Shown: positions 12,402 to 38,701 of the stretch, piece after piece
Layout: the number at the start of each line of letters is the position of its first letter
How positions within the stretch are numbered: position 1 is the first letter of the stretch
Assembly: GCA_034530615.2 (NCBI GenBank)
Contig: JAVRCV020000056.1
Location: 13,034 to 77,033, forward strand
Length of the DNA stretch: 64,000 bases
From: Aulosira sp. ZfuVER01
Lineage (GTDB): Bacteria > Cyanobacteriota > Cyanobacteriia > Cyanobacteriales > Nostocaceae
Reading direction: 5' to 3'
Program-made: the position numbers and the translations under genes
The notes under the pieces: model-generated
What the model was told of the DNA's origin: nothing
The model's input: the letters and a program-made list of their open reading frames with translations, nothing else
Database searches by the model: none

Positions 12402-12406
12402 TGCGA

Positions 12407-17388: not shown

Positions 17389-17427
17389 GAAAACATCAAG
17401 CCAAAAGTTTAATTCCTGACTAATAAT

Positions 17428-18103: not shown

Positions 18104-18129
18104 ATAAAATATCGAACAGAGGTTATTCT

Positions 18130-18612: not shown

Positions 18613-18675
18613 GTTTTGTTCGCAACTTTAGCACAGTTTTTATTTGAATAAATTGAAGCTTTATACTTAACTTAA

Positions 18676-18708
18676 AACTTCTCCTTTTACCGATCAAGAG
18701 GAGAAGTA
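18676..18708. terminator. Hairpin between convergent genes
   Basis: ACTTCTCCT...AGGAGAAGT inverted repeat. Confidence 0.55.
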
Positions 18709-18803
18709 TATTTATTTTTGCGTTTTATTTGCGCAGTTGCGATCGCTATTAGTTTAATCAAGCAAATTATAGTCTGTTATGGACTTTCTACTTCAACTAG
18801 TAA

Positions 18804-21800
18804 TTAGTTAAATAGATGTGATGTCAGTTCGAGAATTTCATCAAAGCAGAAACTCCGGACTAAATTTAATAATTTTTCTGCTAAGTCAGCATGAGATTGC
18901 GGAATTTGCTCAATTAATTGAAAAATTCTCTCACCATCAACTGCAATAGCTGCTTGATGAAGTTCCCCTATCCATTCAGTGGGCATAATTGTAATTGCAG
19001 AATGAATATCTAACATAGAATATTGAACATTCTCTGACTTTTTATCTGTTATATTTTCGCTACTTTCTTCTGAGAAAAGATAGCTTAAATGTAAATATTC
19101 AGCTATCTTTTCAAAAATTATTTGTTCGCGGAATGGTTTGCGAATTAAGTCGTCGCACCCTGCGGCTAAAATACTTGCTTGTTGTTCTTCAAAAGCACTG
19201 GCTGTCAGAGCAATAATCACTGTGTGGGAATTTGTCTCTAAACTTCTCTCCCTAGCTCTAATTTCTTTAGTGGCATCGTAGCCGTTCATTACAGGCATCC
19301 GCATATCCATCCAAATTAACTGAGGTTGCCATTTCTGCCACATAGCGATCGCTTCTTGTCCGTTACTAGCAGCCTCAACTTCAAAGCCAACACCGCCTAG
19401 AAGTTGCATCATTAAATCGCGGTTTTCTTTGCGATCGTCAACTACGAGAATACGGTAAGTTGGTTGGTCTGCTGCTAGTTTGAGTACGCGCCCCCGACTC
19501 AACTTTGGTGTAACTTTTAATGGTGTGGCTAAATTAACTTGAATGTCAAAGCTAAAAGTAGATCCTTGCCCTAAATTACTGCAAAGGTGAATATCTCCTC
19601 CCAACAACCGCACAAACTGTCGGCTAATAGTTAGACCTAGCCCAGTACCCTCCTTGGTTTGAATACCACTGCTTGTCTGGACAAACGGCTGAAACAGATT
19701 ATTCATTTCTGCTGCTGCTATCCCCCGTCCAGTATCCTCAACTTCAAAGATGATGAATTGGGAATGGGGCATAGATTTGTAGTTATTCTCCTTGTCCCCC
19801 TTGTCTCTCTTGCCCCCCTTGTCCCCCGCATCCCCCTCATCCCCCAATCTCGCCCGCAACGTCACTCCCCCGGTTTGGGTGAACTTGATGGCGTTACCCA
19901 ACAGGTTGATCAAAACTTGGCGGAGTTTACCTTCATCTGTTTGGATATAACGCGGCAGATCGGCAGCAATTTCAAACTTGAGGTACAACTGTTTTGTCTG
20001 CGCCCGTACCTGAAACATTTCTTGTAATGTTTGCAACATCAGGTAGAGGTCGAAGTCTTCAGGATTGAAAACGATTTGTCCGGCCTCAATTTTGGACATT
20101 TCCAGGACATCGTTAATCAGGTTGAGTAGATGTTCTCCACTACGGTTAATCGTAGCTAAAGATTCACGCTGGTTTGAGTTGAGACTAGCGTCTCGCTCCA
20201 TCAACTGAGAAAAACCTAAGATGGCATTGAGAGGAGTGCGGAGTTCGTGGCTCATGTTAGCCAAGAAAGCACTTTTGGCACGGTTGGCAGTTTCGGCGGC
20301 TTCTTTTGCTACTCTCAAGGCTGCTTCTGCTTGATGTCTAGCCCTACCGATCGCAATGATTTCACCTACCAATTTCAGGAGATTCATCTCCTGTTGATTC
20401 CAGTTTTTCGTATAGTGAATAGTATCTGCGGCAATAAACCCGACTACTTTACCAGAATGAATCATTGGTACACCTAATGCAGATTTAATTGACTGATTTT
20501 CAAAGAATTCTTTCTCAGGTGTATCGGGTGGTAAATCGGCTATGCATGGCAAAACAGAATTTTGCCCTATAAGTATTGGTGCAAGTAAAGGGAACATTTC
20601 TAAATTGCCCCTTCTGGCATTACCGCTTAATGGTGGAATATCAGCAGCACGCCATTCATGGACTATGTAGACTTCCCTTGGCTGATCGGATAACTCAAAA
20701 ATCGAGCAGCGTTCAGCATTAATAAATTGAGCGATCGCCTGAAGTGTAAAATTAATTGCTGTGTCTATATCTTGGTCGATAAATTGGCGGGAAATACTGC
20801 TGAGTATACTTTCTAGTTGAGCGCGACTTTGCAAAGCTTGCTCTACTTGCTTGCGATCGCTGATATCTGTAAAGACAGAATCTAAACAAGATTCTTCGGC
20901 GTTGAGGCGCAGTGATAATAGTACCCAAACCACAGAGCCATCGCCACGCCGTAGTGCTAATTCAAAATTGCGAACTTCGCCAGATGCTGCTAACTCTGCT
21001 AACATCCGGGCGCGATCGTTGGGATTAACATACAATTCAGTTGTGAAATACCTGCCAATCAAGTCACTAGCAGCAGCGAAACCTAAGATATCAGCACCGC
21101 GTTGATTTGCATCGACAATTAATCCATCTTGTTGACGAGTGCGGAAAATCCCTACTTGGGAATTTTCAAAGATGTTGCGGTATTTCATTTCACTACGACG
21201 CAAGGCTTCTTCTGTTTGCTTGCGTTCTGTAATGTCCCGCCCCACACCAGCGATCGCAATTTCACCATCAGGAGTGTTAATGGTGGAAGTGTTAAAGCTG
21301 AACCATCGCCAGCTATTGTTTTTGTGTCTTAATCGCACCTCAATACCTGTCTGCTTTTCCCCAGCTATGGCTTTTTGTATACCTGCGGCGCTAATTGCTA
21401 AATCTTCAGGATAAGTAAATTCGACTACAGAATGTCCCTCGATTTCTGGCAGGGTGTAGCCCATAATTGGAGTCACATTAGGCGAGTGGTAAGTAAAAAT
21501 TCCCTCTGGAGAGATGGTAAAAATTAAGTCATTGGCATTCTCTACAATAGTGCGGAACTTGATTTCACTTTGTTGCAAAGCTGCTTGGGCGCGTTTACGT
21601 TCTGTAGCATCGGTACCAACTGAAAGTATTTCGATTAAGTTGCCTTGCTCGTCTAAAATAGGTTTATTTGCCCAAACTATCCAGACGCGATCGCCATTTT
21701 TGCACGAGTTTTCATTTTCATTGAATAGGTAGTTTTCTGGGTGCTGGCAAATATCAACCATTAAAGCCTGTAAGTCGCGCCCAGAAGTTTCAGTTTCGGG

Positions 21801-23525
21801 GACAATTGTCCCGACCACATTGCGTCCTATAATCTCTTGGGCATCAAAACCAAAAAGCTTTTGACCGTAGTCATTTAAGTATATGATGTCACCGTGACTG
21901 TCCCAACGCAGAATAATGCAGTTGGCTGTTTGTACCAAATCGCGATACTGGACTTCGCTTTGTCGCAAAGCTGCTTCTGTGCGTTTGCGATCGCTAATAT
22001 CTCGGACTATTGCCAAGACGTGTCGTTTGCCATTGTAAATGCAAGTCGTTCCTTTAACTTCCACATCTATTAAAGTGCCATCTTTGCAGATATCAACAGC
22101 TTGTCCATAAAATTGCCCCCCAGCGCGCGTTGTCTCAAGAAACTCATAGAAAACCGGATGTGAATTTGGGTGAATGTAAACTGATGGATGCAAAGTAATA
22201 AATTCTTCGTAAGTATAACCATGCATCTGACAAGCAGCGGGATTAACTTCGGCAACTGTTTCGGTTTCTATGTCAGTAATAAATAGTCCATCATTAATCG
22301 CTTCAAAAATACTGCGATATTGCAACTCACTTTGTCGCAATGCTGCTTCTGTTTTTTGGCGTTGGGTGACATCACGGAAACTCCACACTCTACCAATAAT
22401 CTGGTCTTTGATGCGCTGAGGACAGGAGTATCTCTCAAAAACCCTACCATCTTGCAATTCTAAAAAGTCGTAACTATCTAGCTCTGGCTGGGCGTATAAT
22501 TCTCGAACTCGCTGCAAAAATCCCTGAGGATCTTTTAACTGGTTTGCCAAATACGCCAGCCGCTTAGGATGGTCTGGTTCTGTTAAAAGTTCTGGTGGAA
22601 TTGACCACATTTCTAAGAACTTTTGATTGTAACTGGTGATATTTCCTAAGCTATCAATTGCTAAGATACCGTCTTGAATCGATTCCAAGATCGCGCTTAA
22701 CAAAGATAAGGAGTTTTCTAAAGCTACTTGGGTAAGTTTGCGATCGCTAACATCACGCCCTAAAACTACCAGCGCCTTGCGTCTACCATCTGGGTGAAAT
22801 ACAGGCACTTTAATCATATCCACAATGCTCACTGTACCATCAGGGCGAGGTACAACTTCTTCTACCCGATTTACAGATCCCTGCTGCCAAGCTTGTTCGT
22901 CTGTTTGGTCGCAATTGAGTAAAGTATCGTGATAAAAATCGCTAAATTGCGCTAGTTCGGAATCAGTTTTTCCTTTGTAATCAACACCATGTATCTCTAA
23001 AAATTCCAGGTTAGCTTGATTCGACTCCAGCCATTTTCCTTCGCTGTCCTTTAAACAGATAATATCTGGTGTCGCGTTAATTAGCGTGCGTAAACGTTCT
23101 TCACTCTCTTGGAAGGATTTTTGAGCTTGTTGAGCCAGCGTAATATCCTGAATTACTAGTACAGCACAATCATCCTCATTCAGTCCCGCACGACTACCAG
23201 AGATTTGCAGCACCAAAGAACGCTTACCTTGATGAAACTCATACTCTGTAGTTTCGTACTTTCCATTTTGGATCAGCACATCAGGGTAGGAGTTTAAAGC
23301 AACAGGTTTTCCTAATTTTAATAAGGGTAGTAACTCACTTAGCTGCCAGCCTGCGATCGCACTTTTGGGCCGATTCACCAGACACTCAAAGCTAGAATTA
23401 CACCATTGAACACGTCGGTCTTCCCCAACCCAGACTACAGCATCAGCGATCGCACCTAGCGTTACTTCCATCTTGGTAAGGGTTGCTTGCAATAGCTTAA
23501 CCTGCTCTAGCTGTTCAGCGCTCAT
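18804..23525 (-). CDS. Cytoplasmic hybrid histidine kinase: multiple PAS, GAF, HisKA, HATPase, REC
   Basis: Repeated PAS/PAC units (..DISDRK..), GAF, MSHELRTPLN, NAIKFT, GTGLGL, C-terminal REC (MDMRMP); no obvious transmembrane segment. Confidence 0.93.
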   Translation of the reverse strand: MSAEQLEQVKLLQATLTKMEVTLGAIADAVVWVGEDRRVQWCNSSFECLVNRPKSAIAGWQLSELLPLLKLGKPVALNSYPDVLIQNGKYETTEYEFHQGKRSLVLQISGSRAGLNEDDCAVLVIQDITLAQQAQKSFQESEERLRTLINATPDIICLKDSEGKWLESNQANLEFLEIHGVDYKGKTDSELAQFSDFYHDTLLNCDQTDEQAWQQGSVNRVEEVVPRPDGTVSIVDMIKVPVFHPDGRRKALVVLGRDVSDRKLTQVALENSLSLLSAILESIQDGILAIDSLGNITSYNQKFLEMWSIPPELLTEPDHPKRLAYLANQLKDPQGFLQRVRELYAQPELDSYDFLELQDGRVFERYSCPQRIKDQIIGRVWSFRDVTQRQKTEAALRQSELQYRSIFEAINDGLFITDIETETVAEVNPAACQMHGYTYEEFITLHPSVYIHPNSHPVFYEFLETTRAGGQFYGQAVDICKDGTLIDVEVKGTTCIYNGKRHVLAIVRDISDRKRTEAALRQSEVQYRDLVQTANCIILRWDSHGDIIYLNDYGQKLFGFDAQEIIGRNVVGTIVPETETSGRDLQALMVDICQHPENYLFNENENSCKNGDRVWIVWANKPILDEQGNLIEILSVGTDATERKRAQAALQQSEIKFRTIVENANDLIFTISPEGIFTYHSPNVTPIMGYTLPEIEGHSVVEFTYPEDLAISAAGIQKAIAGEKQTGIEVRLRHKNNSWRWFSFNTSTINTPDGEIAIAGVGRDITERKQTEEALRRSEMKYRNIFENSQVGIFRTRQQDGLIVDANQRGADILGFAAASDLIGRYFTTELYVNPNDRARMLAELAASGEVRNFELALRRGDGSVVWVLLSLRLNAEESCLDSVFTDISDRKQVEQALQSRAQLESILSSISRQFIDQDIDTAINFTLQAIAQFINAERCSIFELSDQPREVYIVHEWRAADIPPLSGNARRGNLEMFPLLAPILIGQNSVLPCIADLPPDTPEKEFFENQSIKSALGVPMIHSGKVVGFIAADTIHYTKNWNQQEMNLLKLVGEIIAIGRARHQAEAALRVAKEAAETANRAKSAFLANMSHELRTPLNAILGFSQLMERDASLNSNQRESLATINRSGEHLLNLINDVLEMSKIEAGQIVFNPEDFDLYLMLQTLQEMFQVRAQTKQLYLKFEIAADLPRYIQTDEGKLRQVLINLLGNAIKFTQTGGVTLRARLGDEGDAGDKGGKRDKGDKENNYKSMPHSQFIIFEVEDTGRGIAAAEMNNLFQPFVQTSSGIQTKEGTGLGLTISRQFVRLLGGDIHLCSNLGQGSTFSFDIQVNLATPLKVTPKLSRGRVLKLAADQPTYRILVVDDRKENRDLMMQLLGGVGFEVEAASNGQEAIAMWQKWQPQLIWMDMRMPVMNGYDATKEIRARERSLETNSHTVIIALTASAFEEQQASILAAGCDDLIRKPFREQIIFEKIAEYLHLSYLFSEESSENITDKKSENVQYSMLDIHSAITIMPTEWIGELHQAAIAVDGERIFQLIEQIPQSHADLAEKLLNLVRSFCFDEILELTSHLFN

Positions 23526-23923
23526 TAGCGATTCCTTATTGCCTCTGGGATAGATTGAATACCAGTTTGGTATAGAGATTGTATCGCTAATTATAAATGC
23601 TTGAACAAGTTTCTAGAATTGCTTCATAGTATTCTGTTACACGAAATTACAGCAAGAGTATTAGCTTGTTTGAATTCTCGAAAATTTTAATAATGCTTTT
23701 TGAATAAGTTAATTTCTTTGCTTTATTGGTGTGGATTTAGTACCTCGACTTCTTTAATAATTCGGGGTTCTAGGCAATAATCTCCAATTCTCTCAACCAT
23801 TACTAGGTATATAGGTGATACCACGATATTTAAGTGCAGATTTAGGTCGATTTTGAACTGGTTTCAATTTTACAATCTGGTAACTAAATCCACTATCCTT
23901 TGCTGACTATTCCCACTACACAA

Positions 23924-24721
23924 CTACGAATACAGGCTTCCGGATTTATCTGTAGGCTGATTAATTTTACATTTTGAATTTTGAATTGTCTCAAGGGGTT
24001 GACGGCTTTTAATTACTCGTGCTGGTACACCCACAGCTACTGAAAATGGAGGAATATCTTTAGTAACAACAGCGCCAGCACCTATTACACTACCTCTACC
24101 AATGGTCACGCCATCTAATACTTTCACCCCATGACCTAGCCAGCAGTCATCCTCAATTACGATCCCCTTACAAGTAATACCTTGGTATTTGATTGGCTCA
24201 CTTGGATCTGCAAAGTTGTGATTATTTGCATATATTCCAGTGTGGGCTGCAATTAAGCAGTGCTTACCAATTTTAATTTCTCCAGGGCCAGCAATACAAA
24301 CGCTAGGGCCAATAAAAGTATCTTGACCGATGTGAATACAAGTGTTGTTTAATGCCCCTATGAGAACATTACGCTCAAGAACAACTCCATTTTCTAGATG
24401 AATTCTATTATTCTCGTGTCCTTTTCCATCTATACGAACACCTTTGAAAATATATGCTCCATTGCCAATCTCAATAGCATCAGTACTAATAAATTCAACG
24501 CCATCTTGAATATAAACTGAGCTACCTAGCCGGGCAAAAATTGCGCGATACATCAAATTACGTAACTTTACGCCTCCAAAAATTGTGGGAATATCACCTA
24601 GAAAAGTAATTAGCAAAAGTTGTTGAAACCGCTTCAGTTTTGAAAAATATCTCAAGTCATTCATGGCTCTATTATTCTTGATTGCGTTATTGGAGATTTT
24701 TGGAATTGTGAAATACCTCAC
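23924..24721 (-). CDS. Hexapeptide-repeat (left-handed beta-helix) acyltransferase
   Basis: IEDDCWLG, IGRGSVIGAGAVVTKDIP, GVPA; start uncertain. Confidence 0.88.
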   Translation of the reverse strand: MRYFTIPKISNNAIKNNRAMNDLRYFSKLKRFQQLLLITFLGDIPTIFGGVKLRNLMYRAIFARLGSSVYIQDGVEFISTDAIEIGNGAYIFKGVRIDGKGHENNRIHLENGVVLERNVLIGALNNTCIHIGQDTFIGPSVCIAGPGEIKIGKHCLIAAHTGIYANNHNFADPSEPIKYQGITCKGIVIEDDCWLGHGVKVLDGVTIGRGSVIGAGAVVTKDIPPFSVAVGVPARVIKSRQPLETIQNSKCKINQPTDKSGSLYS

Positions 24722-25706
24722 AATATCCTGTATTTGAGTCTTGCTATGTATTGCCTATATTGCTGTCTTTTGAGATTGCAAGTCCACGAATAAACAAGAT
24801 AGCCGATCTAAAGTTTTTCAAACATTTGAAAAACCCAAAGCAAGCTCTCAGGTTAGAAGCTATTAAATCTAGGGGCTATTTAATTATTAGCAATAGCTTT
24901 ACAAGAGATGTCGTATATTTATTTACAAGCTTATGATTGAATCTATGTACTTGTTGAGAAATTCGAGCAAATACTTTTTCTATCTGTCACTGATGACTAC
25001 TGAAGCTTAATGTTTCCCCACAAAATCAAATACTTAACTCTCGATGTGGATTAGTTAGTAATTTGACAAGCTACTATAATTCAGTATTCAGTTATCAAAT
25101 ATCAAAGTAGTGATTTCAATTCAATTACATCTATTTATGCTGTTTCCAAGCAAGCATAAAATTTCCTCGCTAACTTCAAGATGCAATTGTTGAATTACTC
25201 ATAAAATTTCCCAGCAAGTACAAGCACGTTAACTTAGGGGGGAGTGTCTCCAACTTCAGCCATCACATTGAAGTTAACCATCGGAGCATACAAATAAACA
25301 CTTCCCCGATTACTATAACGGCTTACTTGCAGCCAGTTTTTATAGTCTGCTGCTGTTCTCATCATTACGTACACAGAGAATTTACATATTCACTAAAGCG
25401 CCTTTATAGTGACACCATTAGTGTGCTTTCCCCATCCTAGAAGAGACTGATAAAAGTATTGTTAAGGAACAGTAAAGTTTAAAGGAAAAATATAAAGATT
25501 TCAAAATAGACTTGATTTTGTAATCAGTATTTTTCTGGCTTTAGGCATTAATTATACTATCGATAATACCCAATTAAGCAAATAAATAAGCACTAAAAAT
25601 CAGGGTAAATATTTCCTATGTGGTGCTGCATTAGACTAGAAAATTTACCATTGATTTATAATATTAAGTATTGTCGGTAAAAAGTTAACTAGTTTTTGAT
25701 AAAAAC

Positions 25707-25965
25707 CTACTTAAAGAGCAATACAGGAATGTGGCTGCTGCGTCGCATTTGGGCTGTAGTACTGCTAATGACTAAGTGCCGAATACATCTGTGTCCGTAG
25801 GCTTCTATAATCAGTAAATTCATATCTTGCTGTTCTACGTAGCTGGCTATAACCCTTTCTGGTTCGCCATGTATGATTTGACAAATTGGTACAAAACCAC
25901 CTTTACGCGCTTCTATTTCAGCAGTTTGTAGGCGAGACATCGCTGCTGCATCTGGTTGTTTAGAG
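25707..25965 (-). pseudogene. C-terminal remnant of a universal stress protein
   Basis: GEPERVIASYV..LLIIEAYGH..ISSTTAQMRRSSHIPVLL; N-terminal part absent and conserved glycines substituted. Confidence 0.65.
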
Positions 25966-26289
25966 GCTAAGTCAACAACATTAGGAATTGATGAGCGATC
26001 GCTTCATCAATCCAAGTTTACAATCTTGATGCAGATTTTAATTCAGACAGGCGATCGCCTAGTGCATCTTCATTAGGGATCAATATAATGTAGTATCTTT
26101 TTTCTTCGTTTTGGCAGCTTTCCTGAAATACCTTGACTTGAACTAGTGCGTTAGGCTACGCCATAACACACGCTACAAATACCTAATATTTTTTCAAAAT
26201 TTAAATCGGATTTTTATAGTTGATTTTTACTACATAAAAAAAGCTTACAGCTAACAGAAATTTTTGGGTTCCTCGCTATTTTTAAAGTA

Positions 26290-26478
26290 ATGATGGAGCC
26301 GCTTCAAATGAAACGATGTGAAACACTAGCTGAATTGGTCGCACGAACTGTGGTTGAATTTGAGCAACGCGAGCTAGAACTACAAAAAGCTCAGGTGCAT
26401 CAAGTAAAGCCACAAGAAAAAGCTACTAAGCAGCGTAAATCGAATCAAGTTGCTTATACCATTTCACCAAAAATATGA
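26290..26478 (+). CDS. Small hypothetical protein convergent on the recombinase
   Basis: 62-aa ORF with helical, coiled-coil-like N-terminus and basic tail. Confidence 0.5.
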   Translation: MMEPLQMKRCETLAELVARTVVEFEQRELELQKAQVHQVKPQEKATKQRKSNQVAYTISPKI

Positions 26479-26550
26479 TGCAGACGCAAACCTTGGAACC
26501 TTTGCTGAGTCTCAATTTCTTAATTTTGAATTTTGAATTTTGAATTGGTA

Positions 26551-28113
26551 TTAGTGTAGGTATAACAGTTCAACTCCTGTTACTAGGTTGCCATCTACCA
26601 CTATTCTTTTGATACATCCTTTAAGTAAAGCTTGTTTGTCCTGTTGTTCTAAACCTTGCCAATATCTCTCGTTAGAAAATGCAACAACAATTCGCTCTTT
26701 AGCTATGAGATATTGTTTAGATGTGTTGTTTGTTGTAGCGACAGCCGTTGCTATCTGCATCCTGATATCCTCTTTAGCTTTTTCAATTGCTGGATTTGAT
26801 GGTAATGCTTCTAATGTATTTAAAGAAGCCCGCAGTGTTTTAACCTCTGGTGATTCCTCGCAAGAATCAACTTTTTGTTCTACTAATCCAGCTAACCTTT
26901 CTGCTTCCCGAATTAAATGATTAATTACTTGTTTTTCTAATTCATCTGAAGAAATCATGCGTCCGTTTTGACAAGCACCAGTACGATAAAAACTGCATTG
27001 ATAGTGATGACGGACATAATTTTTACGTTTAACCAATTTCTTGCACTGGCGACTATAAGCAGCACCACAATGAGCGCATTTAACTAAGTTGGCGAATGGG
27101 TTGACATATTTTTGCTCGGTAGCCCATCGGTTATTTCGGTTCTCACGGATCGTGGCTTTAATGCTTTCGTGTTCCTCACGGGTGATAATCGTTTCATCTT
27201 CGTGGGTTCCCCATGTTACTTCCCATTCATCGAAGGGTTTGCGATGTCCTTTGGGGCGAACCATCACATTATATGGTGTCCCCCCTGCATAAATAGGATT
27301 TACGAGGATAGAGCGTAACCCAGAAACCGACCACTTCAATCCTGTGTGCGGATAACGCAGATTTAACGCACCTCCACGAGATTTGTTGATATTCTCTAGT
27401 ACAATTTCCTCTGATTCCTTTAGGAGGTTAATTCTGGTATCGGTGGCTTTGGGAATGGCGTTTGCTTGTATACCAAAAGTCTCATGCAGTACTTTCACTG
27501 TTTGAGATACTGTACCTACTGCTAAAAAGGTATCAAATACAAATCGCATCAATTGCGATCGCGTGAATTCTCTCTTCCCCTCAATTAAACAAACACAGGG
27601 ACGCTCATCTCGTTTGTATTTGTCATCCTCAACCATATACCCCAATGGTGCATTCCAGTGAGGTTTTTTATTTTCTTTACGGGTGTCGCGTTCTTTTTTG
27701 ACTCGCATTGCTAGCATTTTCACCTCATACTTAGATGCTGCTAGTCGCACATCGATTGTTAACTCACCACCAATACTCGATAAGTCGAAAGGCTCATCTA
27801 GCGCATAGGGTTGTATACTTTTCTTTTTTAACGCATCCATCAAACGATAAAAAGTCATTGATGAAGATGTTAAACGGTCGATGCGAATAAATAACAACTT
27901 CGATACTTTACCTGGTGCAGATGCATTAATATCTTCAATCAACTGTAACAGCCCTTTACGGCGATCGCTGGTACGGCTTTCTACGTCGTAATATATGTGC
28001 GTTGCACCAGCCTCACGCAACCGCCGCATTTGTTTGATTAACGCGCCTTTATCTTCCGCCTGCTCATCTGTTGAAACCCGTGCGTAACCCAAAACGTCCA
28101 TATACCAAACCAT
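26551..28113 (-). CDS. Large serine recombinase (XisF-like) of the nifK-interrupting element
   Basis: YARVST catalytic Ser, RIDRL, recombinase domain, Zn ribbon CAHC..C..C, coiled coil. Confidence 0.92.
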   Translation of the reverse strand: MVWYMDVLGYARVSTDEQAEDKGALIKQMRRLREAGATHIYYDVESRTSDRRKGLLQLIEDINASAPGKVSKLLFIRIDRLTSSSMTFYRLMDALKKKSIQPYALDEPFDLSSIGGELTIDVRLAASKYEVKMLAMRVKKERDTRKENKKPHWNAPLGYMVEDDKYKRDERPCVCLIEGKREFTRSQLMRFVFDTFLAVGTVSQTVKVLHETFGIQANAIPKATDTRINLLKESEEIVLENINKSRGGALNLRYPHTGLKWSVSGLRSILVNPIYAGGTPYNVMVRPKGHRKPFDEWEVTWGTHEDETIITREEHESIKATIRENRNNRWATEQKYVNPFANLVKCAHCGAAYSRQCKKLVKRKNYVRHHYQCSFYRTGACQNGRMISSDELEKQVINHLIREAERLAGLVEQKVDSCEESPEVKTLRASLNTLEALPSNPAIEKAKEDIRMQIATAVATTNNTSKQYLIAKERIVVAFSNERYWQGLEQQDKQALLKGCIKRIVVDGNLVTGVELLYLH

Positions 28114-28155
28114 AGAAGCGTTATCCTAATATAACTTGATAACTAGCGCATTAGT

Positions 28156-28413
28156 TCTCTTCTGTTCACCGAGCCTGTAGACCTGTTAATCGGTAACTCC
28201 TACGGTAAGTACCTGTGGCGCGATTGTAAGGTTCCCCTCGTAAGAATTGGCTATCCCATCATGGATCGTCACCACCTGCACCGCTACAGCACCATCGGTT
28301 ATCAAGGTGTAATCAACCTCCTCAACTGGGTTGTTAATACAATCTTCGAGGAAATCGATCACAACACTAACATTCCTTCTAAGACCGACATTTCCTACGA
28401 CTTGATTCGTTAA
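28156..28413 (+). CDS. nifK: 3' fragment of nitrogenase MoFe protein beta chain (interrupted gene)
   Basis: SLLFTEPVDLLIGNSYGKYLWRDCKVPLVRIGYPIMDRHHLHRYSTIGYQGVINLLNWVVNTIFEEIDHNTNIPSKTDISYDLIR*; no start codon; not in ORF track. Confidence 0.95.
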   Translation, partial: SLLFTEPVDLLIGNSYGKYLWRDCKVPLVRIGYPIMDRHHLHRYSTIGYQGVINLLNWVVNTIFEEIDHNTNIPSKTDISYDLIR

Positions 28414-28438
28414 GAATCACATTCACTCGCGACGTGTC

Positions 28439-28492
28439 TAAAAAGTAAAAAGTAAAAAGTTAAAAAGAAATATCTTTTTACTTTTTACTTTT
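28439..28492. repeat. STRR-type (AAAAAGT)n inverted array forming a hairpin after nifK
   Basis: AAAAAGT repeats followed by ACTTTTT repeats. Confidence 0.7.
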
Positions 28493-28515
28493 TCCTCGTA
28501 CCTGAAGTATTGATT

Positions 28516-28860
28516 ATGGAAACTATCACCAAACATCACTCTCATTCTCATCCTCATCCTCAGCCTAACTACCATCCACCCAACTATAAACGCTCTGGTA
28601 CTTTTGATATCTTGAATCCCTTGCGTCGGTTGGTTGATGGCATTACAGTAAAAAATGCTCGTTTTGCCCATATAATTTGTCAGGTAATACCTTGCTGTTG
28701 TCCCTTTGAGCGCAATATTCAATTATTAGGCAAGACTTTTCATATTCCCGCACTGTGCAAACTCAATCCTTTGTATGATGAGTTTGTGATGTTGCGTTTT
28801 CGTGCGCTCTCTTATCTTGCAGATGAATGTGGAGAGGATGTCACAAAATACATTTGTTAG
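28516..28860 (+). CDS. Mo-dependent nitrogenase C-terminal domain protein
   Basis: ICQVIPCCCPFER..IPALCKLNPLYDE..LRFRALSYLADECGED; sits between nifK and nifE. Confidence 0.85.
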   Translation: METITKHHSHSHPHPQPNYHPPNYKRSGTFDILNPLRRLVDGITVKNARFAHIICQVIPCCCPFERNIQLLGKTFHIPALCKLNPLYDEFVMLRFRALSYLADECGEDVTKYIC

Positions 28861-28989
28861 AAATTAGTTGCTACTCATTACTCATTACCATTAGTCAAAA
28901 GTCATTAGTCATTGGTTATTAATTATTAATTATTAGTTATTCAAATGACAAATGACAAATAACAACTGCCATCCAGCAAGAGAAGAGAG

Positions 28990-29553
28990 ATGAAAATCAC
29001 CCAAGGCAAAATTAACGAGCTGCTTAGTGAGCCAGGATGCGAACATAATCAGCACAAACAAAGCGAAAAGAAAAACAAGTCTTGTACCCAACAGGCGCAA
29101 CCAGGCGCGGCTCAAGGGGGTTGTGCTTTTGATGGCGCAATGATTGCCTTAGTGCCAATTACTGATGCGGCTCATTTAGTCCACGGGCCGATCGCCTGTG
29201 CTGGTAATTCCTGGGGAAGTCGTGGTAGTCTCTCTTCAGGCCCCATGCTCTACAAAACGGGGTTTACCACTGACTTAAGTGAAAATGATGTAATCTTTGG
29301 GGGCGAAAAGAAACTCTACAAAGCCATCCTCGAAATACATAAACGCTACAATCCAGCCGCAGTTTTTGTTTACGCTACCTGCGTGACTGCTTTGATTGGT
29401 GATGATATCGATGCTGTTTGCAAAACTGCGGCAGAAAAAATTGGCACTCCTGTTATTCCGGTAATTGCTCCGGGATTTATTGGGAGTAAAAATCTGGGTA
29501 ATCGCTTTGGCGGTGAAGCTTTGCTGGAATATGTAGTAGGTACAGCAGAACCA
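28990..29553 (+). CDS. nifE: 5' fragment of FeMo-cofactor scaffold NifE (interrupted gene)
   Basis: [31 protein letters not shown]; homology ends at VGTAEP, then non-Nif[11 protein letters not shown] to 29586. Confidence 0.95.
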
Positions 29554-29613
29554 CAACACTTACAACCACACCTTGTTATGATATGATTTTGGGACTGATT
29601 TAAATAAATTCCC

Positions 29614-31020
29614 ATGAGAGTTTACGGTTACGCCCGCGTTAGCACGCAAGAACAAGCTGAGGAGTTTGACGCACTAAATCAGCAAATAGCTAGATTAAAG
29701 GCGGCGGGTGCAACGGAAGTATTAATAGATATTGAGTCGGGACGCAACGATGGGAGAAAACAGTATAACGAGTTGCTCAAGTTGACGCAACAAAACCAAG
29801 TTGACGAAATTATCATAACTCGCGTCGATCGCTTAGGTAGGAGTGTGATAGCTATCCATAAGGCGATCGATATTTTCGTGAAGCATAATGTTAATCTGCG
29901 AATATTGGATGCACCTGTCGATCCTAATTCCCCTTTCGGCTGGTTTAGTATTAATCAAATGTCTGGGTTGGCAGAATTTGAATCAAGGTTATTATCTCAG
30001 AGGATTAAGCATGGAAATAATTATTTTCGACAGCAACTAAAGTTTTGCAGTCCGCCATTTGGATATGCTAAAGACGAAAATCAGCGGTTAATTCCTAATA
30101 ACAATATTCACGAAAAATCAGGGAAAACTTACTTTGAACTAGCTAAGATTATTATTGATTTAACACTCTCGATGCGATCGCTTAAGGATGTCTGCAATCA
30201 TATTTACACTGAATACGAAGTAGTTTTTAGTGTTGCAGGCTTGCGAGATTGGGTGAAAAACCCGGCACTGCAAGGACATACAGCTTATTTCGTCAAAAAG
30301 AAGAAAGGCGTTAATCGCGAACCAATCATAAATTTCAACACCCACGAAGCCTTAATTACCGCAGACACAGTAGACGCAATCCAACGTAAGTTGTTAGCAA
30401 ATAAGAAGTATCGCAGTTCCGCACAATCAACTCGTGGCGACTATCCCCTCGCAGGCTTAATTAAATGTGCCTATTGTGGGGGAGGTATGTATCGTAACTT
30501 TTCCCGCCACAAAACTAGAACCGAGTACATACGCTGCGTTAATTACAACAAACCGGGAAAGTATCACTGCGAAAATTCCAAATGTACCCGACTGCGGGAA
30601 ATTATCGCCCAGACGATCGCGGCTTTATGTGCAAATGCGCCGAATTTAATTGAGTATCTAGAAACTCAGTCAACCACAATGCAGGCGATTAATACCAAAG
30701 AAATCGAAAACTTAACCAATGAATTGTCCGTTATGCGGGGGCTACGCAGCTCCAACCCCGATATCATTGAAGCGATCGCCAAAATCGAGGCGACAATTAA
30801 CACCCTATCAAGTCCCACTAGAATTGTTGATAGGGATGCTTTTGAGAATGCTAAGAGGAAAATAGCGATCGCATCTCAGGCTACATTCTGGGAATCTTTG
30901 GATGATTCGGAATTGCGATCGGCGTTGGCTGAGTTTGTCGAGAAGGTTGAGGTGGATTCGTCGGGGGATATAACTCCTGCTTTTAAATTGCCATTAACCC
31001 TATCTTCAATGCGTCCGTAG
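29614..31020 (+). CDS. Large serine recombinase (XisF-like) of the nifE-interrupting element
   Basis: YARVST, TRVDRLGR, PPFGY, Zn ribbon CAYC..C..C. Confidence 0.92.
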   Translation: MRVYGYARVSTQEQAEEFDALNQQIARLKAAGATEVLIDIESGRNDGRKQYNELLKLTQQNQVDEIIITRVDRLGRSVIAIHKAIDIFVKHNVNLRILDAPVDPNSPFGWFSINQMSGLAEFESRLLSQRIKHGNNYFRQQLKFCSPPFGYAKDENQRLIPNNNIHEKSGKTYFELAKIIIDLTLSMRSLKDVCNHIYTEYEVVFSVAGLRDWVKNPALQGHTAYFVKKKKGVNREPIINFNTHEALITADTVDAIQRKLLANKKYRSSAQSTRGDYPLAGLIKCAYCGGGMYRNFSRHKTRTEYIRCVNYNKPGKYHCENSKCTRLREIIAQTIAALCANAPNLIEYLETQSTTMQAINTKEIENLTNELSVMRGLRSSNPDIIEAIAKIEATINTLSSPTRIVDRDAFENAKRKIAIASQATFWESLDDSELRSALAEFVEKVEVDSSGDITPAFKLPLTLSSMRP

Positions 31021-31142
31021 GTTTTGATGAACTCTTCGGGAGACATATCCCCAACCTTCAAGTCTCCGTAGTATTTTTCATAAGCTTCCAGCAACTTGTC
31101 ACTGAGCATTTTTAGTACTTTTTGGGAATGTGTGGAAGTCAT
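30876..31142 (-). CDS. Small hypothetical protein overlapping the recombinase 3' end
   Basis: 88-aa ORF with ATG start; N-terminal half outside the overlap looks protein-like. Confidence 0.45.
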   Translation of the reverse strand: MTSTHSQKVLKMLSDKLLEAYEKYYGDLKVGDMSPEEFIKTYGRIEDRVNGNLKAGVISPDESTSTFSTNSANADRNSESSKDSQNVA

Positions 31143-31860
31143 AAAACATTCTGTAGCGATGTTTTTAGATTATTTGTTGGCTGGAATTTTTCTGTTAGCA
31201 GTGAACGACTTGAAAATGCCAACATTGATGAAGCAACATCCTGAAAGCTCAAATTTTCACATTAGGTAGTAATGTTGACATTGTTTGTTGAGTCAAATTA
31301 CTAACCTCTTTGAGTTATTTTTTAATTTAAGAATGAATTACTTTTTATAGTGCGATCGCAATAGTTTTACTTACATCCACAAAGACTTTGCGTAAGCACA
31401 ATTATTATTTGAGAGAATTCCCAGCTTAAGCATATCTCAAATTTTTATTCAGGGCTTTGAGTGAATTGTCAAAAGTAGCCAGGATGTTGCCGAAGCCGGA
31501 GCATCAGGAATGGCTGACGCAGATATCAGTACGGCATCGGTGGTCTTGAGCGATCGCAACTATATCAAAATCAACACAATAGAGCGTATTAGATCGGTCG
31601 TTAATCAGGTAACAACATCAATGAGTAAGGGAAAAAGGGGAAAGGCTTGAATTCATTTCCCCCTTAAACTTTTTTCAAAGCATAACAAACAGAGATGAAA
31701 ATTGCTGCTTTGAACCTTGATTTGTAGGTATTTTAGGCTAACAATAGCTGTCGATTTTCTTAAAAAAAAGTCTTAATATAGCAATCCTTGTAAGAGTTAC
31801 AAACATCTCTCTTTCTTGTCACCTTCGTTCCTATATCAAATAGGATTGCTATATTGAAAA

Positions 31861-32655
31861 TTAAGGCAGAATAAAGCCGTATTTTTGGAGTACTGCTTTA
31901 GCTTGACTGCTAGAGAGAAATTTGGCAAAATCCTTGGCAGCATCAGCATTTTTGCTACTTTTAAGGACTGCAAGTGGATAAACAATCGCAGAATGATATT
32001 TTTCGTCAGCCGCCACTACAACTTTTACCTTATCGGAAATTTTGGCATCAGTGATATAAACTAAACCTGCATCAGCGTTGCCACTTTCTACAGATGCTAG
32101 TACTTGACGTACATTGTTAGCGTAAACCAATTTTGACTTGACCTGTGGCAAAAGTTTGAGCTTCTGAAGTACTTGCTCACCATATTGTCCTGCGGGTACA
32201 CTTCTAGGTTCACCAATGGCAATTTTCTTAATTTTGGCGTCTTTGAGGTTGTAGAAGCTGGTGATGCCCACAACATTTTTAGGTACTATCAAAACCAGAC
32301 GGTTCTTAGCCAAGATAGAACGTGTTCCAGATAGTAAGAGTCCTTTTTCTTCTAGAGCATCCACTTGCTTTTTAGCAGCCGAAATAAAGATATCTGCGGG
32401 CGCACCCTGCTCAATCTGTTGCTGCAATGCACCAGAAGCCCCAAAATTATAATTAATGTTGGTCTTTGGTTGAGTTTGTTGGTAAAGAGGCTTAAGCTCT
32501 TCCAGCGCATCTTTCAAACTGGCGGCGGCTGACACAAGAAGCTTGGCCTGTGACTGTGCTAATACAGGTGAGGGAGCAACTGCTGGTAAACAAGTGGTTA
32601 CTAGCACACTAGCAACTGCTGTACTAATTAAGGTAAGAATTCGTCTTCTGTTCAT
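31861..32655 (-). CDS. modA: Molybdate ABC transporter substrate-binding protein
   Basis: SAAASL, FGASGAL, GAPADIFISA, SVPAGQY, NVRQVL, ADAGLVY. Confidence 0.93.
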   Translation of the reverse strand: MNRRRILTLISTAVASVLVTTCLPAVAPSPVLAQSQAKLLVSAAASLKDALEELKPLYQQTQPKTNINYNFGASGALQQQIEQGAPADIFISAAKKQVDALEEKGLLLSGTRSILAKNRLVLIVPKNVVGITSFYNLKDAKIKKIAIGEPRSVPAGQYGEQVLQKLKLLPQVKSKLVYANNVRQVLASVESGNADAGLVYITDAKISDKVKVVVAADEKYHSAIVYPLAVLKSSKNADAAKDFAKFLSSSQAKAVLQKYGFILP

Positions 32656-32729
32656 AGAAAAAACTACAAGCCAAAGATTTGTTTATAAAATTGACACTTG
32701 GTAAAATCGTACAAGATAACCAAAATATT

Positions 32730-33046
32730 ACCAACTTAATTGGTGATGCTATTTAAGATATTACACAGTCTTAATCAGTACTCCTCAGCATCACTATAAT
32801 TACCAACTCCACCGTTTCACTATTACTCTGCACTCCTGAATAAGCTTAGTTTTTAGCATTTGTTTTGGTATTGTAAATGCTTGGTGTTTGCAAATTGGTA
32901 ACTAGTGCTACATTTTTTCCAACTTAATTGGTATAAGTTGTATACCAACTAAATTGGTTTAGATAGACAACCGTAATACTGCGAGAAACGTAGTGTGATG
33001 GTTGCAATAGCTGTAATTCTTGTTACTTTATACCAACTATGTTGGT
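32730..33046. promoter_or_regulatory. Four palindromic ACCAA-N5-TTGGT operators in the modA/porin divergent promoter
   Basis: 32730 ACCAACTTAATTGGT; 32918 TCCAACTTAATTGGT; 32944 ACCAACTAAATTGGT; 33032 ACCAACTATGTTGGT. Confidence 0.75.
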
Positions 33047-33062
33047 CAAATATATTTGAGGT

Positions 33063-34901
33063 GTGAGGGTAATGTCCACTTTTGTACGGTCTTCGTTGTT
33101 ACTACTGCTAGCTAGTATGATGACAGCTAAAGCTGCATCAGCAACTCCAGCGGGAGGAGATACCAAGCAATTACAAGCTGATAGCCAACTAAATAATTCA
33201 CAGACAGAACTATCCCAACAGAGTCAGCAGGTTCCAGATGACAACGCACAACCAAGCTCTTTGATGGATCAGGTAACATCAGTATCGCAACTCTCTGATG
33301 TGCAACCGACAGATTGGGCCTTTCAAGCTTTACAGTCTTTAGTTGAGCGCTATGGTTGTATTGCTGGATATCCAGACAGCAGCTTTCGAGGTAATCGCGC
33401 AATGACTCGCTATGAGTTTGCAGCAGGTTTGAATGCTTGTTTGAATAGAGTCAACGAACTGATTGCGACTGGTACAGCCGACTTAGTAAGCAAGCAAGAC
33501 TTGGAAACTCTGCAAAAATTGCAACAAGAGTTTGCTGATGGATTAGTAGAACTGCGGGGAAGGTTGGATGGTTTAGAAGGTCGTACTGATACCTTAGAAA
33601 GTCAACAATTTTCCACTACTACCAAGTTGAATGGAGAGGTAATTTTCAGTGTTGGTGGTGTATTTGGTGAAGATAGAGCATTAAACTCAGATGTTTGGAA
33701 CGAAATTAATGCTAGGCCCGCAGGCGCAACCAGGGAGGCTTTCACAAACAATCAGTATGCAGCATCAGGAGGACGAAGGTTACAAGATAGAGCAGTTTTT
33801 AGCGATCGCATCCGACTCAATTTAATTACTAGCTTTACTGGTAAAGACCAATTATTTACTCGTTTAGAAGCCAATAACACCATTGCCTTTAGTGGTGCTG
33901 TCACAGGTACAAACATGACTCGCACATCCTGGGACACCACTAATAATGCTGACAACAGTGTTCAGTTAGGTAAGTTATTTTATCGCTTTCCTGTAGGCGA
34001 TCGCCTCAACGTGATTGTGGATGCCATTGGTGGAGAATTTTACGACAACTTCAATACATTGAACCCCTTGTTGTCTTCAACTCCTGTTGGTTCTTTGTCT
34101 CGCTTCGGTCGCTTTTCTCCGATTTATCGCGCAAGTAACACTGGTTCTGGTAGCAATATAGGTTCAGGTGTAAGTGCGATTTTCAAGTTGAGTGACACAA
34201 TCACTTTATCAGGTGGTTATCTGGCTCGCAGAGCTAACGATCCGATTTCTGGAAAGGGCTTATTTGACGGTAGTTATGGCGCATTAGCCCAATTGGCATT
34301 TCAGCCAAACAAAAACTTTAACCTTGGTTTGACTTATGCTCACTCCTACCTCAGAGGTGCGAACAATGATGGTGATGTCGTAGTTTCCGGAGCCTATGGG
34401 AGTGCATTTGCGAACAATCCCTTTAACTCTACTGCGACTACTCCGGTTAACACTACCGCCAATCACTACGGCTTAGAAGCTAACTATCGTTTTAGCCCAC
34501 AATTTACCCTTGCAGGTTGGGTTGGATATACTCAGGCGATCGCAGAAAATAGTTCTGGTGCTAATGTTAATCGTGGCGATAAAGCAGATATTTGGAATTG
34601 GGCAGTTACTTTCGCCTTTCCCGACCTAGGTAAAAAGGGTAATTTAGGGGGTATCATCTTTGGACAACCGCCGAAGGTAACTGGTAACGACTTTGGAACG
34701 AATACTGTTACTGCAACAAATCTTGTACCTGACAGACGTATAGACACTGATACCTCTTTCCATTTAGAGGCTTTATATCGTTATCAAGTTAATAGCAATC
34801 TTTCAATTACGCCAGGATTGATTGTGATATTTAATCCAGAGCATAACAGCGATAACGACACCATCTATACAGGTGTTCTTCGCACTACATTCCGCTTCTA
34901 A
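33063..34901 (+). CDS. Cyanobacterial SLH-domain outer-membrane porin (OprB-like)
   Basis: QVTSVSQLSDVQPTDWAFQALQSLVERYGC, QFSTTTKL, terminal LRTTFRF. Confidence 0.95.
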   Translation: MRVMSTFVRSSLLLLLASMMTAKAASATPAGGDTKQLQADSQLNNSQTELSQQSQQVPDDNAQPSSLMDQVTSVSQLSDVQPTDWAFQALQSLVERYGCIAGYPDSSFRGNRAMTRYEFAAGLNACLNRVNELIATGTADLVSKQDLETLQKLQQEFADGLVELRGRLDGLEGRTDTLESQQFSTTTKLNGEVIFSVGGVFGEDRALNSDVWNEINARPAGATREAFTNNQYAASGGRRLQDRAVFSDRIRLNLITSFTGKDQLFTRLEANNTIAFSGAVTGTNMTRTSWDTTNNADNSVQLGKLFYRFPVGDRLNVIVDAIGGEFYDNFNTLNPLLSSTPVGSLSRFGRFSPIYRASNTGSGSNIGSGVSAIFKLSDTITLSGGYLARRANDPISGKGLFDGSYGALAQLAFQPNKNFNLGLTYAHSYLRGANNDGDVVVSGAYGSAFANNPFNSTATTPVNTTANHYGLEANYRFSPQFTLAGWVGYTQAIAENSSGANVNRGDKADIWNWAVTFAFPDLGKKGNLGGIIFGQPPKVTGNDFGTNTVTATNLVPDRRIDTDTSFHLEALYRYQVNSNLSITPGLIVIFNPEHNSDNDTIYTGVLRTTFRF

Positions 34902-34964
34902 TTCAACCCCAATTCGAGTAGTGCGAATTTTTTCAATATTCAATAGTAAACGGAGAAATGTTTT

Positions 34965-35642
34965 ATGCGTTTTAGCCGCAAGATACCTATTGCATCTTTA
35001 ATACTATCGATACTGGTTTTATGGCAGCCTACTTTAGCTGACTCCAGGGCTGATGTTCCTTGGAATCGAGAAGAAACACCATCTATTTGGTGGAATAAAA
35101 ATAAGTGTACTGGAGGCTTTTCGCAAAGTTTTCGCTTGGGTGGAGAACTCAATAATCCAACCACCTATAACTTGCAAAACCTGAGAAATTTGCGAGATGC
35201 TTTAAAAAACCAAAATCCCGCAATAGTTACGGAAATCACTGTTAGCTTTCAAACAGGCTCAGGCCCACGCACAGAAACATACTATGGAGTTCCCCTCTGG
35301 GAGTTGATTAATAATCCACAAGCCGCAGGTGGTCTAAAACCTGGGAATTCTGGGGTGAATTCTAAAAACTCTTTTCTGAGGCAATATGTTCTAGTTGAAG
35401 CCACAGATTGTTATGGTGCAGTTGTAGCTATTGGTGAAATTCAACCGAACTTTGAAGGAAAAACAGTGCTAGTTGCATTTGAAAAAAAAGGTAGTGATGG
35501 TAAAGTCACAACTTTAATAGATGAAGGATTTGCTCGCTTAGTAGTTCCTCTTGACAAAGCTGGAGGTCGTTACGTTAGTAATGTGAGAAATATTCTCGTC
35601 TTTTCTGCTCCTCCATCTCCTTTGAAACCAAAAGATTTCTGA
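34965..35642 (+). CDS. Secreted protein resembling a molybdopterin-dependent oxidoreductase catalytic fold
   Basis: Signal peptide; YYGVPLWEL, VEATDCY, ARLVVP.DK.GGRYVSNV. Confidence 0.7.
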   Translation: MRFSRKIPIASLILSILVLWQPTLADSRADVPWNREETPSIWWNKNKCTGGFSQSFRLGGELNNPTTYNLQNLRNLRDALKNQNPAIVTEITVSFQTGSGPRTETYYGVPLWELINNPQAAGGLKPGNSGVNSKNSFLRQYVLVEATDCYGAVVAIGEIQPNFEGKTVLVAFEKKGSDGKVTTLIDEGFARLVVPLDKAGGRYVSNVRNILVFSAPPSPLKPKDF

Positions 35643-35738
35643 TAACTTTTTCTACCTTTGTGATTAAAGACGCTGCACGAACGGAGAGTTATTTCCGTTA
35701 TCGGGGTAATAGTAAGTTAAAAAAAATGTGACAGATGG

Positions 35739-35768
35739 GTAAGGGCACAACAATGTTGTGCCCTTACG
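35739..35768. repeat. Palindromic dispersed repeat
   Basis: GTAAGGGCACAACAATGTTGTGCCCTTAC. Confidence 0.65.
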
Positions 35769-36052
35769 AATAATTTATCTTTTGCAAACATTATTTGAAT
35801 TAGGATAACTTCTTATCTGCGTAATCAGCTACTGTGTTTTCATCATCTTGGTTGCAATATGTAATTCTCAAGTACTATTTACCTGACGCCAGTTTAATTA
35901 CTATTACTTATAGCTGTAAGCATTTTCACTTGAAAAATCTGACATATTCAGATAGAATCTTCATATAATCAAGTAGTTCTATCAATTTAACTTAGTATTT
36001 TAAATATTTATGAATAAATTGCCAAAGTTGTATAACTATTGCCTTGTCCAAT

Positions 36053-36856
36053 ATGAAACAAATTAAATTTGTAAATAATGCTGGAAAAATAACTGCACTT
36101 TTATTTTTAATCACAATTTTACTGACACCTTTTGTGGTTGTAAATGCTGGAGAACGCGGAGTTTTAATGCAGTTTGGCAAGGTTCAGGAAACAGTATTGG
36201 GCGAAGGAATACATATTATAATTCCCATTGTCAATACAGTTAAAAAAATCAGTGTCAGAGTTCAAAAACAAGAAATCTCTGCTGAAGCTTCTTCTAAGGA
36301 TTTGCAAGATGTTTTTACAGATGTAGCATTAAACTGGCACGCTATTCCGGAAGAAACTAATATAATGTTTCAAGAAATAGGTGATGAAAAAGCTTTAGTT
36401 GATAAAATTATCAATCCTGCGGTAGAAGAAGTTTTAAAAGCTATTATAGCAAGGTATACAGCAGAAGAAGTAGTTACTAAACGAGGAGAAGTAAAATCTG
36501 GTGTTGATGATACTTTAAAAGCGAGATTGCATGACTACCATATTGCGGTTGATGATATTTCTCTGGTTCATGTCAATTTTTCGGATAAGTTTAGTGAAGC
36601 AGTTGAGGCAAAACAAATTGCAGAACAAGATGCCAAACGAGCAGATTTTATAGCACTAAAAGCAGCAAAACAAGCAGAAGCTAAGGTTAATTTAGCTAGG
36701 GGAGAAGCAGAAATAAACAGATTACTACGTGATAGTTTGACTAATGAGATTTTAGAAAGGCAAGCAATAGAAAAATGGGATGGTAAATTACCTTTGATTA
36801 TGTCTAAAGATGCTCCTAAGCTTTTAAATATGAATGAAATTTTAAAATTAAAGTAA
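36053..36856 (+). CDS. Prohibitin/SPFH family protein
   Basis: VNAGERGV, SKDLQDV, AVEAKQIAEQ, IEKWDGKLP. Confidence 0.9.
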   Translation: MKQIKFVNNAGKITALLFLITILLTPFVVVNAGERGVLMQFGKVQETVLGEGIHIIIPIVNTVKKISVRVQKQEISAEASSKDLQDVFTDVALNWHAIPEETNIMFQEIGDEKALVDKIINPAVEEVLKAIIARYTAEEVVTKRGEVKSGVDDTLKARLHDYHIAVDDISLVHVNFSDKFSEAVEAKQIAEQDAKRADFIALKAAKQAEAKVNLARGEAEINRLLRDSLTNEILERQAIEKWDGKLPLIMSKDAPKLLNMNEILKLK

Positions 36857-36981
36857 TTTGGCTATAGCAAGCCTATTTCAGTTGTGAAAAACAATCAGTG
36901 TTGACAGTCTGTATTCGATATTCCACAAATTATTTATAAAATTTATATAAAATAACCCAGTATGGTGAACTGGGTTTTTCA

Positions 36982-37410
36982 TTAACTACCAGAGAAGAAA
37001 CTAGGAGTATCGAGAATTTTAAAATGGATTAATGCCATAATCAAAAATGTATAGGCAGTTGAAGAAACTAAACCTGTCAATAGTTCTTTTTTGACATTAC
37101 GTTCTTGAGTTTGTTTTTGTAACATATCAATTGCACCTGCTTGCATCAATAGAATACCAATAATGTTAGATAGCCAGTAACCAATGATGACACCAGGCAT
37201 AAGTAATTTAGGTGCAAAAAGACTACAAATATAACCGAAAAAATAAGCAATTGGTAAATTGAATACTAAATCATTCCACCAGCATAATGGTGATAATAAA
37301 TATCCAATCACTAAGAAAAATCCACCTCTGAGCTTCTGGAGTAATGTTTTAGGTAAATTTTCTGGAGTTGGTGATAACAACTCTTGACCACTCTCTTTGA
37401 TTTCATTCAT
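36982..37410 (-). CDS. Hypothetical membrane protein
   Basis: GYLLSPLCWWNDL; several hydrophobic helices. Confidence 0.8.
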   Translation of the reverse strand: MNEIKESGQELLSPTPENLPKTLLQKLRGGFFLVIGYLLSPLCWWNDLVFNLPIAYFFGYICSLFAPKLLMPGVIIGYWLSNIIGILLMQAGAIDMLQKQTQERNVKKELLTGLVSSTAYTFLIMALIHFKILDTPSFFSGS

Positions 37411-37558
37411 ATTTGTACACTATTTCTACCAACTAACCGTACTTTAAAACAAAAATTTCAAAAAGTCTAGAGTCACACAGAAATTTAAATTCCAAAAACC
37501 TGTTAATTGTAAGTAAAGTTTCTGTATTAATAAACTCTGTAATTACAACTGAAAATTT

Positions 37559-38350: not shown

Positions 38351-38701
38351 ACAAACTACGGTATTGCAATTGAATTAAAGTAGTTTTTTGAGATACTATC
38401 ATTTAGTCTACTACTGAAGTACCAATATCTTCCAAAATCCTATTGCTCGCAAAAAAGCTTTTTTTATTAAGTATAAATTACAACTAATTGTTAATCAAAC
38501 TTTACAAAAATAATAGACTTTGGCTATTTTTCGCTTTAAAATACGGTAAGTCGATGAGGTTTTAGTGTTTGATGAATTTATCCCAGGGGTTCTTCAAAAC
38601 TTGCAATTACATGAAAGCTTCTGCACGACAGCGTTACAGCCAATCTTTTAGTTTCAGCTAAACAAAGTCACATTCGCAAAACCCCACTTAAGGACAGGAG
38701 T

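Follow-up and report, generated by a model that had tools for sequence, protein, structure and literature searches.

Elements interrupting nifK, the first of which was reported in PMC3667715, and those interrupting nifE are distinguished by their breakpoints. In Table B of Hilton et al. 2016 (PMC4874684), nifK elements at positions 1277–1280 are listed with GTTC-type repeats and a serine recombinase gene lying at the element's end in reverse orientation, examples being those of Calothrix desertica PCC 7102 (64.8 kb) and Rivularia PCC 7116 (84.7 kb), and the nifE variant 558 with a serine recombinase gene at its start in forward orientation (Scytonema hofmanni PCC 7110, 9.5 kb). In Calothrix NIES-4101, genes are restored by both excision and inversion, including a demonstrated excision of a nifK element by a serine recombinase, the order of recombinase action being left open by Uesaka et al. 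2024 (PMC11249958); the same source gives an inverted nifD 3′–nifK 5′ island in Fischerella PCC 9339 and, in its Table S4, an island of nifK 427–511 and nifE 1–184 between nifK and nifE inserts, all on one strand, in Calothrix parasitica NIES-267. The present analysis concerns a comparable island in Aulosira sp. ZfuVER01, found in a stretch of 64,000 nucleotides (the window, positions 13034–77033 of contig JAVRCV020000056.1, here C56) of an 8.03-Mb genome assembled into 83 contigs; the right edge of the window is the end of the contig.

The island carries a 3′ fragment of nifK, a gene for a Mo-dependent nitrogenase C-terminal domain, and a 5′ fragment of nifE, and is bordered by two large serine recombinase genes, xisK and xisE, pointing away from it. 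This layout, read in the original prediction from the letters alone, was borne out by family and domain matches, and its estimate of about 1.4 kb by a measured 1,394 bp (28156–29549) between the two predicted crossover dinucleotides. nifK and nifE are both interrupted, and the island holds one half of each; the nifK 5′ half lies at C22:75742–77028, and the nifE 3′ half at C63:28243–29049, followed by nifN, nifX, and the remaining nif cluster. Genome-wide hidden Markov model searches, which bear on the objection that intact copies might be used elsewhere, found no intact nifK or nifE, the other matches being weak paralogues or pieces of nif genes. In silico joining gives a NifK of 511 amino acids, 494 of them identical to the intact NifK of genome G013, and a NifE of 474, 464 of them identical to the intact NifE of G003; neither has an internal stop. 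Most probably, nifK and nifE were interrupted independently, by an insert apiece, and the island is the part of the nitrogenase operon lying in between; when heterocysts form, each insert would likely be excised in circular form through the serine recombinase that it encodes. The claim that nearly the whole window could be element cargo holds in so far as the window outside the island does fall between recombination sites. The stretch with the nitrogenase C-terminal-domain gene can also be aligned in relatives devoid of both elements.

Table 1. Features of the nifK–nifE island and its surroundings (positions within the window; partner sites on other contigs as indicated)
Feature	Position	Strand	Remarks
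Right part of the nifK element cargo	1..26550		Element starts at C22:77017
xisK, XisF-family large serine recombinase of the nifK element	26551..28113	-	520 aa (amino acids); 516 aa from ATG at 28101
Right nifK recombination site (attR-like)	28131..28182	+	Core GTTCTCTT at 28154–28161; partner C22:77015–77022
nifK 3′ fragment	28156..28413	+	Codons 427–511 (85 codons), stop at 28413; TIGR01286 positions 467–516 matched
Mo-dependent nitrogenase C-terminal-domain gene (Mo-nitro_C)	28510..28860	+	PF06967, E 1.3e-38
nifE 5′ fragment	28990..29549	+	Codons 1–187; TIGR01283 positions 5–192
Left nifE recombination site (attL-like)	29523..29574	+	Core CAGAACC at 29546–29552; partner C63:28244–28250
xisE, XisF-family large serine recombinase of the nifE element	29614..31020	+	468 aa; 61 bp from core
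Left part of the DNA separating the nifE halves	31021..64000		modA-like, porin, sulfur-assimilation, and other accessory genes; ends in an insertion sequence at the contig end

The arrangement is thus one already described, and both breakpoints, at nifK nucleotide 1277 and nifE nucleotide 558, are published variants. The nifK element resembles the nifK-1277 elements of PMC4874684, as tabulated there, in its breakpoint, in the GTTC(T)-type repeat GTTCTCTT at both ends, in its direct gene halves (here inferred across a single gap), and in the recombinase gene located at its end on the opposite strand, 40 bp (ATG at 28113) or 52 bp (ATG at 28101) from the core, the published distances being 51–62 bp from the edge. 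It differs from the listed examples in its cargo—a contractile-tail cluster, a CRISPR (clustered regularly interspaced short palindromic repeats) array, a LanC-domain gene, and fatty-acid and two-component genes—and in having a nifE element only 1.4 kb further on. The nifE element shares with the variant 558 of the same source the breakpoint, the GAACC core, and a same-strand recombinase gene at its beginning (61 bp away here versus 66 bp), while its size, at least 62.7 kb if the halves are direct, contrasts with the 9.5 kb of PCC 7110. The island itself is that given in Table S4 of PMC11249958 for NIES-267, with nifE 1–184 there and 1–187 here; NIES-267, however, splits also nifH and nifB, which are whole here, and nifD and nifK more often.

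That the cassette is not a misassembly, as had to be considered, follows from its recurrence in 7 of the 14 other genomes of the genus. In addition, positions 26525–31500 are crossed without differences by a single Logan contig in each of two runs and by two overlapping contigs in a third, the runs possibly being the very source of the assembly.

The predicted central dinucleotide of the nifK site is TC (28156–28157) and that of the nifE site GA (29548–29549); a longer match shared by the nifE ends, TTATGATAT, was rejected as the core for being out of frame. The dyad arms of the predicted circle junctions fit best at these dinucleotides, with 15 of 25 matches against 11 for the next centre, and a contig of a related strain (run X4) continues through an uninterrupted nifK at exactly 28154. 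In serine recombinases, a non-palindromic central dinucleotide makes the outcome depend on the orientation of the sites, and since TC and GA are both non-palindromic, orientation should decide here between excision and inversion.

For nifK, the orientation could be established through the insertion sequence (IS) copies in which the contigs end, there being no direct overlap among the four contig ends that matter. The right end of C22 and the left end of C56 are opposite ends of one IS family with a common 6-bp duplication, AAATAA; in this family all six left ends pair uniquely by their 6-mer duplications, and one of seven right ends stays unpaired. Moreover, a contractile-tail operon is divided by the gap, its genes keeping to one strand and to the usual order, with sheath, hub, and spike on C22 and gp25 and baseplate J on C56. 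Because the target duplication and the continuous operon join C22 to C56, across one IS gap and with no bridging read, the nifK halves are direct, hence the nifK event is an excision, a well-supported conclusion, of about 71–72 kb (at least 70,671 bp plus the unassembled IS interior). It is scarcely conceivable that in this genome the whole island instead runs opposite to both outer halves, so that inversion followed by excision would be needed: contig orientation is arbitrary in a draft assembly and such a layout does exist in G002, G004, G007, G010, and G014 with about 90%-identical recombinases, but the IS duplication and the tail operon both attach C22 to the left (xisK) end of C56, and the nif gene tree does not place this genome within the inverted clade.

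The nifE event is probably an excision as well, judging from related genomes. Eleven relatives have a whole or direct nifK together with a resolved nifE, and the nifE halves are direct in nine of them (G011, G013, G033, G113, G114, G169, G204, G255, and G259), a count omitting G001 and G262, in which the nifK halves lie on separate contigs, and the five inverted genomes, in which nifK is inverted or unresolved; as kin are not independent, and some genomes may be the published assemblies themselves, the ratio is only a rough prior. With direct halves the nifE element would measure at least 62,698 bp. Several points weigh against excision here. The right end of C56 and the left end of C63 belong to different IS families and thus do not link the nifE halves. 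The family at the right end of C56 makes 3-bp duplications and has eight left and six right ends; the sole right end with the duplication of C56, on C46, appears from an open frame read across the flanks to pair with C20, so the partner end of C56 is probably unassembled. Furthermore, a single contig holds both nifE halves in 18 relatives, and in 8 of these the halves are on opposite strands, one clade accounting for five of the eight.

An unlikely alternative is that nifK is restored by excision while the nifE 3′ half lies on the opposite strand of the closed chromosome and XisE acts by inversion. The nifE side is unassembled; the 3′ half is opposite in two of the 11 relatives with nifK intact or direct (G061 and G093), and it is reported as opposite in Calothrix NIES-3974 and PCC 6303 in the Discussion of PMC11249958; against this stand the nine direct relatives, for what a ratio among kin is worth.

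Other attempts to connect C56 with C63 were discarded: the 3-bp IS duplications are not unique and the partner is missing, the cargo blocks are scattered in relatives, and every contig aligned to the window end breaks off at the IS. Exact pattern scans for a site free of the IS gave no match in either of two collections. The layout of G003 hints that the left end of C63 continues into C35, which does not reach C56.

Excision in preference to inversion is thus settled for nifK and probable for nifE. The original prediction had left removal and inversion side by side and held the choice undecidable; this no longer applies to nifK, remains partly true of nifE, and inversion fits relatives and not nifK here. 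The check it proposed, on the orientation and distance of the partner halves, gave direct halves at least 70.7 kb apart for nifK, and for nifE halves on contigs that could not be linked to each other.

Its count of at least two rearrangements was right as to nifK and nifE and had to be raised to four in total. fdxN is split by a 39.7-kb element carrying XisF (C22:48967–50529); TATTCTCAGAA stands at C22:10908 and 50559. The element splitting nifD measures 19.1 kb and carries an XisA-like gene, with GGATTACTCCG at C22:56307 and 75370; this gene is so named for its position and for the repeat given in PMC11249958, Pfam yielding no match. nifB and nifH are whole. As fdxN, nifD, nifK, and nifE are all split, four events, amounting to at least 192 kb, separate the vegetative layout from an intact nifB-to-nifN cluster.

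Both window recombinases match the NCBIfam XisF family (NF041201; 541.5 and 503.4 bits, cut-off 375), the family of the XisF of the Anabaena PCC 7120 fdxN element, and have Pfam Resolvase, Recombinase, and zinc-ribbon domains. XisK and XisE are only 25% identical to each other (128/521), in keeping with the clear divergence noted earlier, and XisK is 51.5% identical to the XisF of this genome's own fdxN element. From what is known of the family, XisK and XisE would each pair their own two sites and cut at the non-palindromic central dinucleotide, TC for nifK and GA for nifE, and each excision would release a circle with the element's own recombinase gene. Both elements would likely be excised when heterocysts form, restoring full reading frames.

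Some results speak against active excision. No rejoined nifK or nifE and no circle were found among the rows listed for the Logan contigs of this organism, and in two runs single contigs cross both sites, although such contigs drop rare forms and the negative is uninformative. The arms of the host sites score 12/25 in dyad symmetry, which leaves the circle junctions a modest margin. XisF is reported to need XisH and XisI for excision; of 15 XisH matches genome-wide, not one is on C22, C56, or C63. That the elements are dead, nifK and nifE never being rejoined and the strain not fixing nitrogen, is nevertheless highly improbable. The lack of a rejoined form in the Logan contigs favours it, but both recombinase frames are intact and keep the catalytic-serine motif and the zinc-ribbon cysteines, the joined proteins are 97–98% identical to intact orthologues, the arms of the recombination sites are conserved across relatives, and nifB, nifS, nifU, nifH, nifN, and the downstream nif genes are open frames. 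An NtcA-type box, GTAN8TAC, is absent upstream of both recombinase genes, the nearest lying inside xisK at 27971, and promoter-like matches are at chance level (3 versus 4.1 expected).

Within the genus (15 genomes), nifK is split at the same site in ten genomes and whole in four, G009 being not assessable. xisE orthologues occur in ten and are missing from exactly the five with a whole nifE; both elements are present in eight. In G011 both are direct. In each of G002, G004, G007, and G014, a multi-megabase contig has the island and both recombinase genes on one strand and the two outer halves on the other, and in G010 the island inversion is seen on the nifE side (loci L027 for G007, L028 for G014, L029/L030 for G002, L031 for G004, and L032 for G010). 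An opposite-strand gene fragment, the trait of the NIES-4101 type, is accordingly present in the first four and on the nifE side of G010, and is not found for nifK here. The nif DNA tree (13 rows) unites the five genomes in one clade (100/100), recovered also in a 24-protein tree (XisK part 98/93, XisE part 98/100) from which the hupS-side recombinase was left out. Their recombinases are 90–91% identical to those of this genome, their flanks are homologous in all five, and an inverted repeat of about 150 bp, its copies about 85% alike, stands with one copy on each side of the island. The repeats may well mark the breakpoints of one old inversion. Misassembly was rejected as the cause, four of the genomes being on multi-megabase contigs, the flanks homologous, and the repeats only about 85% alike.

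By geometry, either enzyme would invert first in this clade and the other would then excise one circle. The logic of NIES-4101 and PCC 9339 as given in PMC11249958, with interleaved site pairs and inversion followed by excision, is the one predicted for the five inverted relatives; those two cases concern nifH/nifB or nifD/nifK, and in the present genome the nifK halves are direct. It appears likely that the island between the elements is a cassette whose orientation no longer matters, that one ancestral inversion between the approximately 150-bp repeats is shared by five species-level genomes, and that the same enzymes would there act as an interlocked invertase–excisionase pair, whereas here XisK simply excises. 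The examined rows of Table S4 of PMC11249958 contain no nifK/nifE island that is inverted relative to both outer halves, and literature searches gave no paper on one; subscription papers, figures, and bioRxiv supplements lay mostly outside their reach, which leaves novelty unproven.

The genome of Aulosira sp. ZfuVER01 adds one member to a described class, with exact sites and four rearrangements, and the part worth following, excision itself being deduced from gene layout, would be the inverted sister clade. Close relatives with the same two recombinases have the island direct or inverted, one element missing, or the nifE element flipped, and this natural series makes it testable whether site orientation alone sets excision versus inversion and whether the order of events is enforced. 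If true, the cassette reading would give a minimal and datable origin of scrambled nif clusters such as that of NIES-4101 from ordinary excision elements, with no new enzyme.

Other layouts were met among the relatives. G013 (L036/L037) has an intact nifK and a nifE element of 42 kb in flipped orientation, whose xisE is at the far end, beside nifE 3′ and on the opposite strand; by coordinates, flipped nifE elements occur also in G204, G238, G259, and G267. xisE orthologues were found in 33 of 300 sampled genomes of the family, 24 of them outside the genus, and ten of these 24 have both nifE halves on one contig, seven direct and three opposite. In G262, a genome of another genus, nifK is split and nifE 3′ lies on the strand opposite to the island, 63 kb upstream of it (C270:19666–86225), possibly a second inverted island. 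In G003 (L038/L039) about 410 kb separate the nifK halves, which are on the same strand and flanked by an xisK of 95% identity. In G009 (L045, L046) the starts of two contigs fall a few bases at most from the nifE core; one runs into xisE and the other, with host-side bases, into nifE 3′. The pair could reflect a mixture of excised and unexcised DNA, and the upstream nifK–nifE 5′ piece was not found in this genome.

As regards the cargo, the contractile-tail cluster of the nifK element occupies L018:1854–16440 (right end of C22) and L019:500–12249 (left end of C56), the PAAR-like label being given by eye, and includes a 1,856-amino-acid protein with OmpA, peptidoglycan-binding, Ig, and protein-arginine-deiminase domains. 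Its hub–spike stretch has no DNA match in any of the 18 relatives searched, and the synteny of the cluster was therefore unusable. The same element carries a short CRISPR array, labelled by eye (L017:5420–5870, C22:~79420–79870), and a gene for a LanM-like protein of 1,081 amino acids with DUF4135 and LanC-like parts (L017:12190–15435). Between the nifE halves lie a gene for a modA-like binding protein (31861–32655) and sulfur-assimilation genes (38702–56107), which would leave the heterocyst chromosome; a second modA-like gene (54%) is on C49.

The fdxN element contains genes reading, by eye, like type III CRISPR components (L013:13800–20000) and a second intact XisF-family recombinase gene (L015:4584–6125, C22:42584–44125), upstream of which no interrupted gene is evident, possibly a nested element. 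A full second nifH lies outside the nif cluster (G000:C46:55704–56525). A gene on C12 (L023, C12:13350–15262), presumably hupS by sequence similarity, is apparently split near its start, with an XisF-family recombinase gene encoded on the opposite strand next to the 3′ part, and hupL is a single frame of 532 amino acids. Finally, an XisF-family recombinase gene in two overlapping pieces (L024:1036–2369, C57) directly follows an apparently truncated dioxygenase frame.

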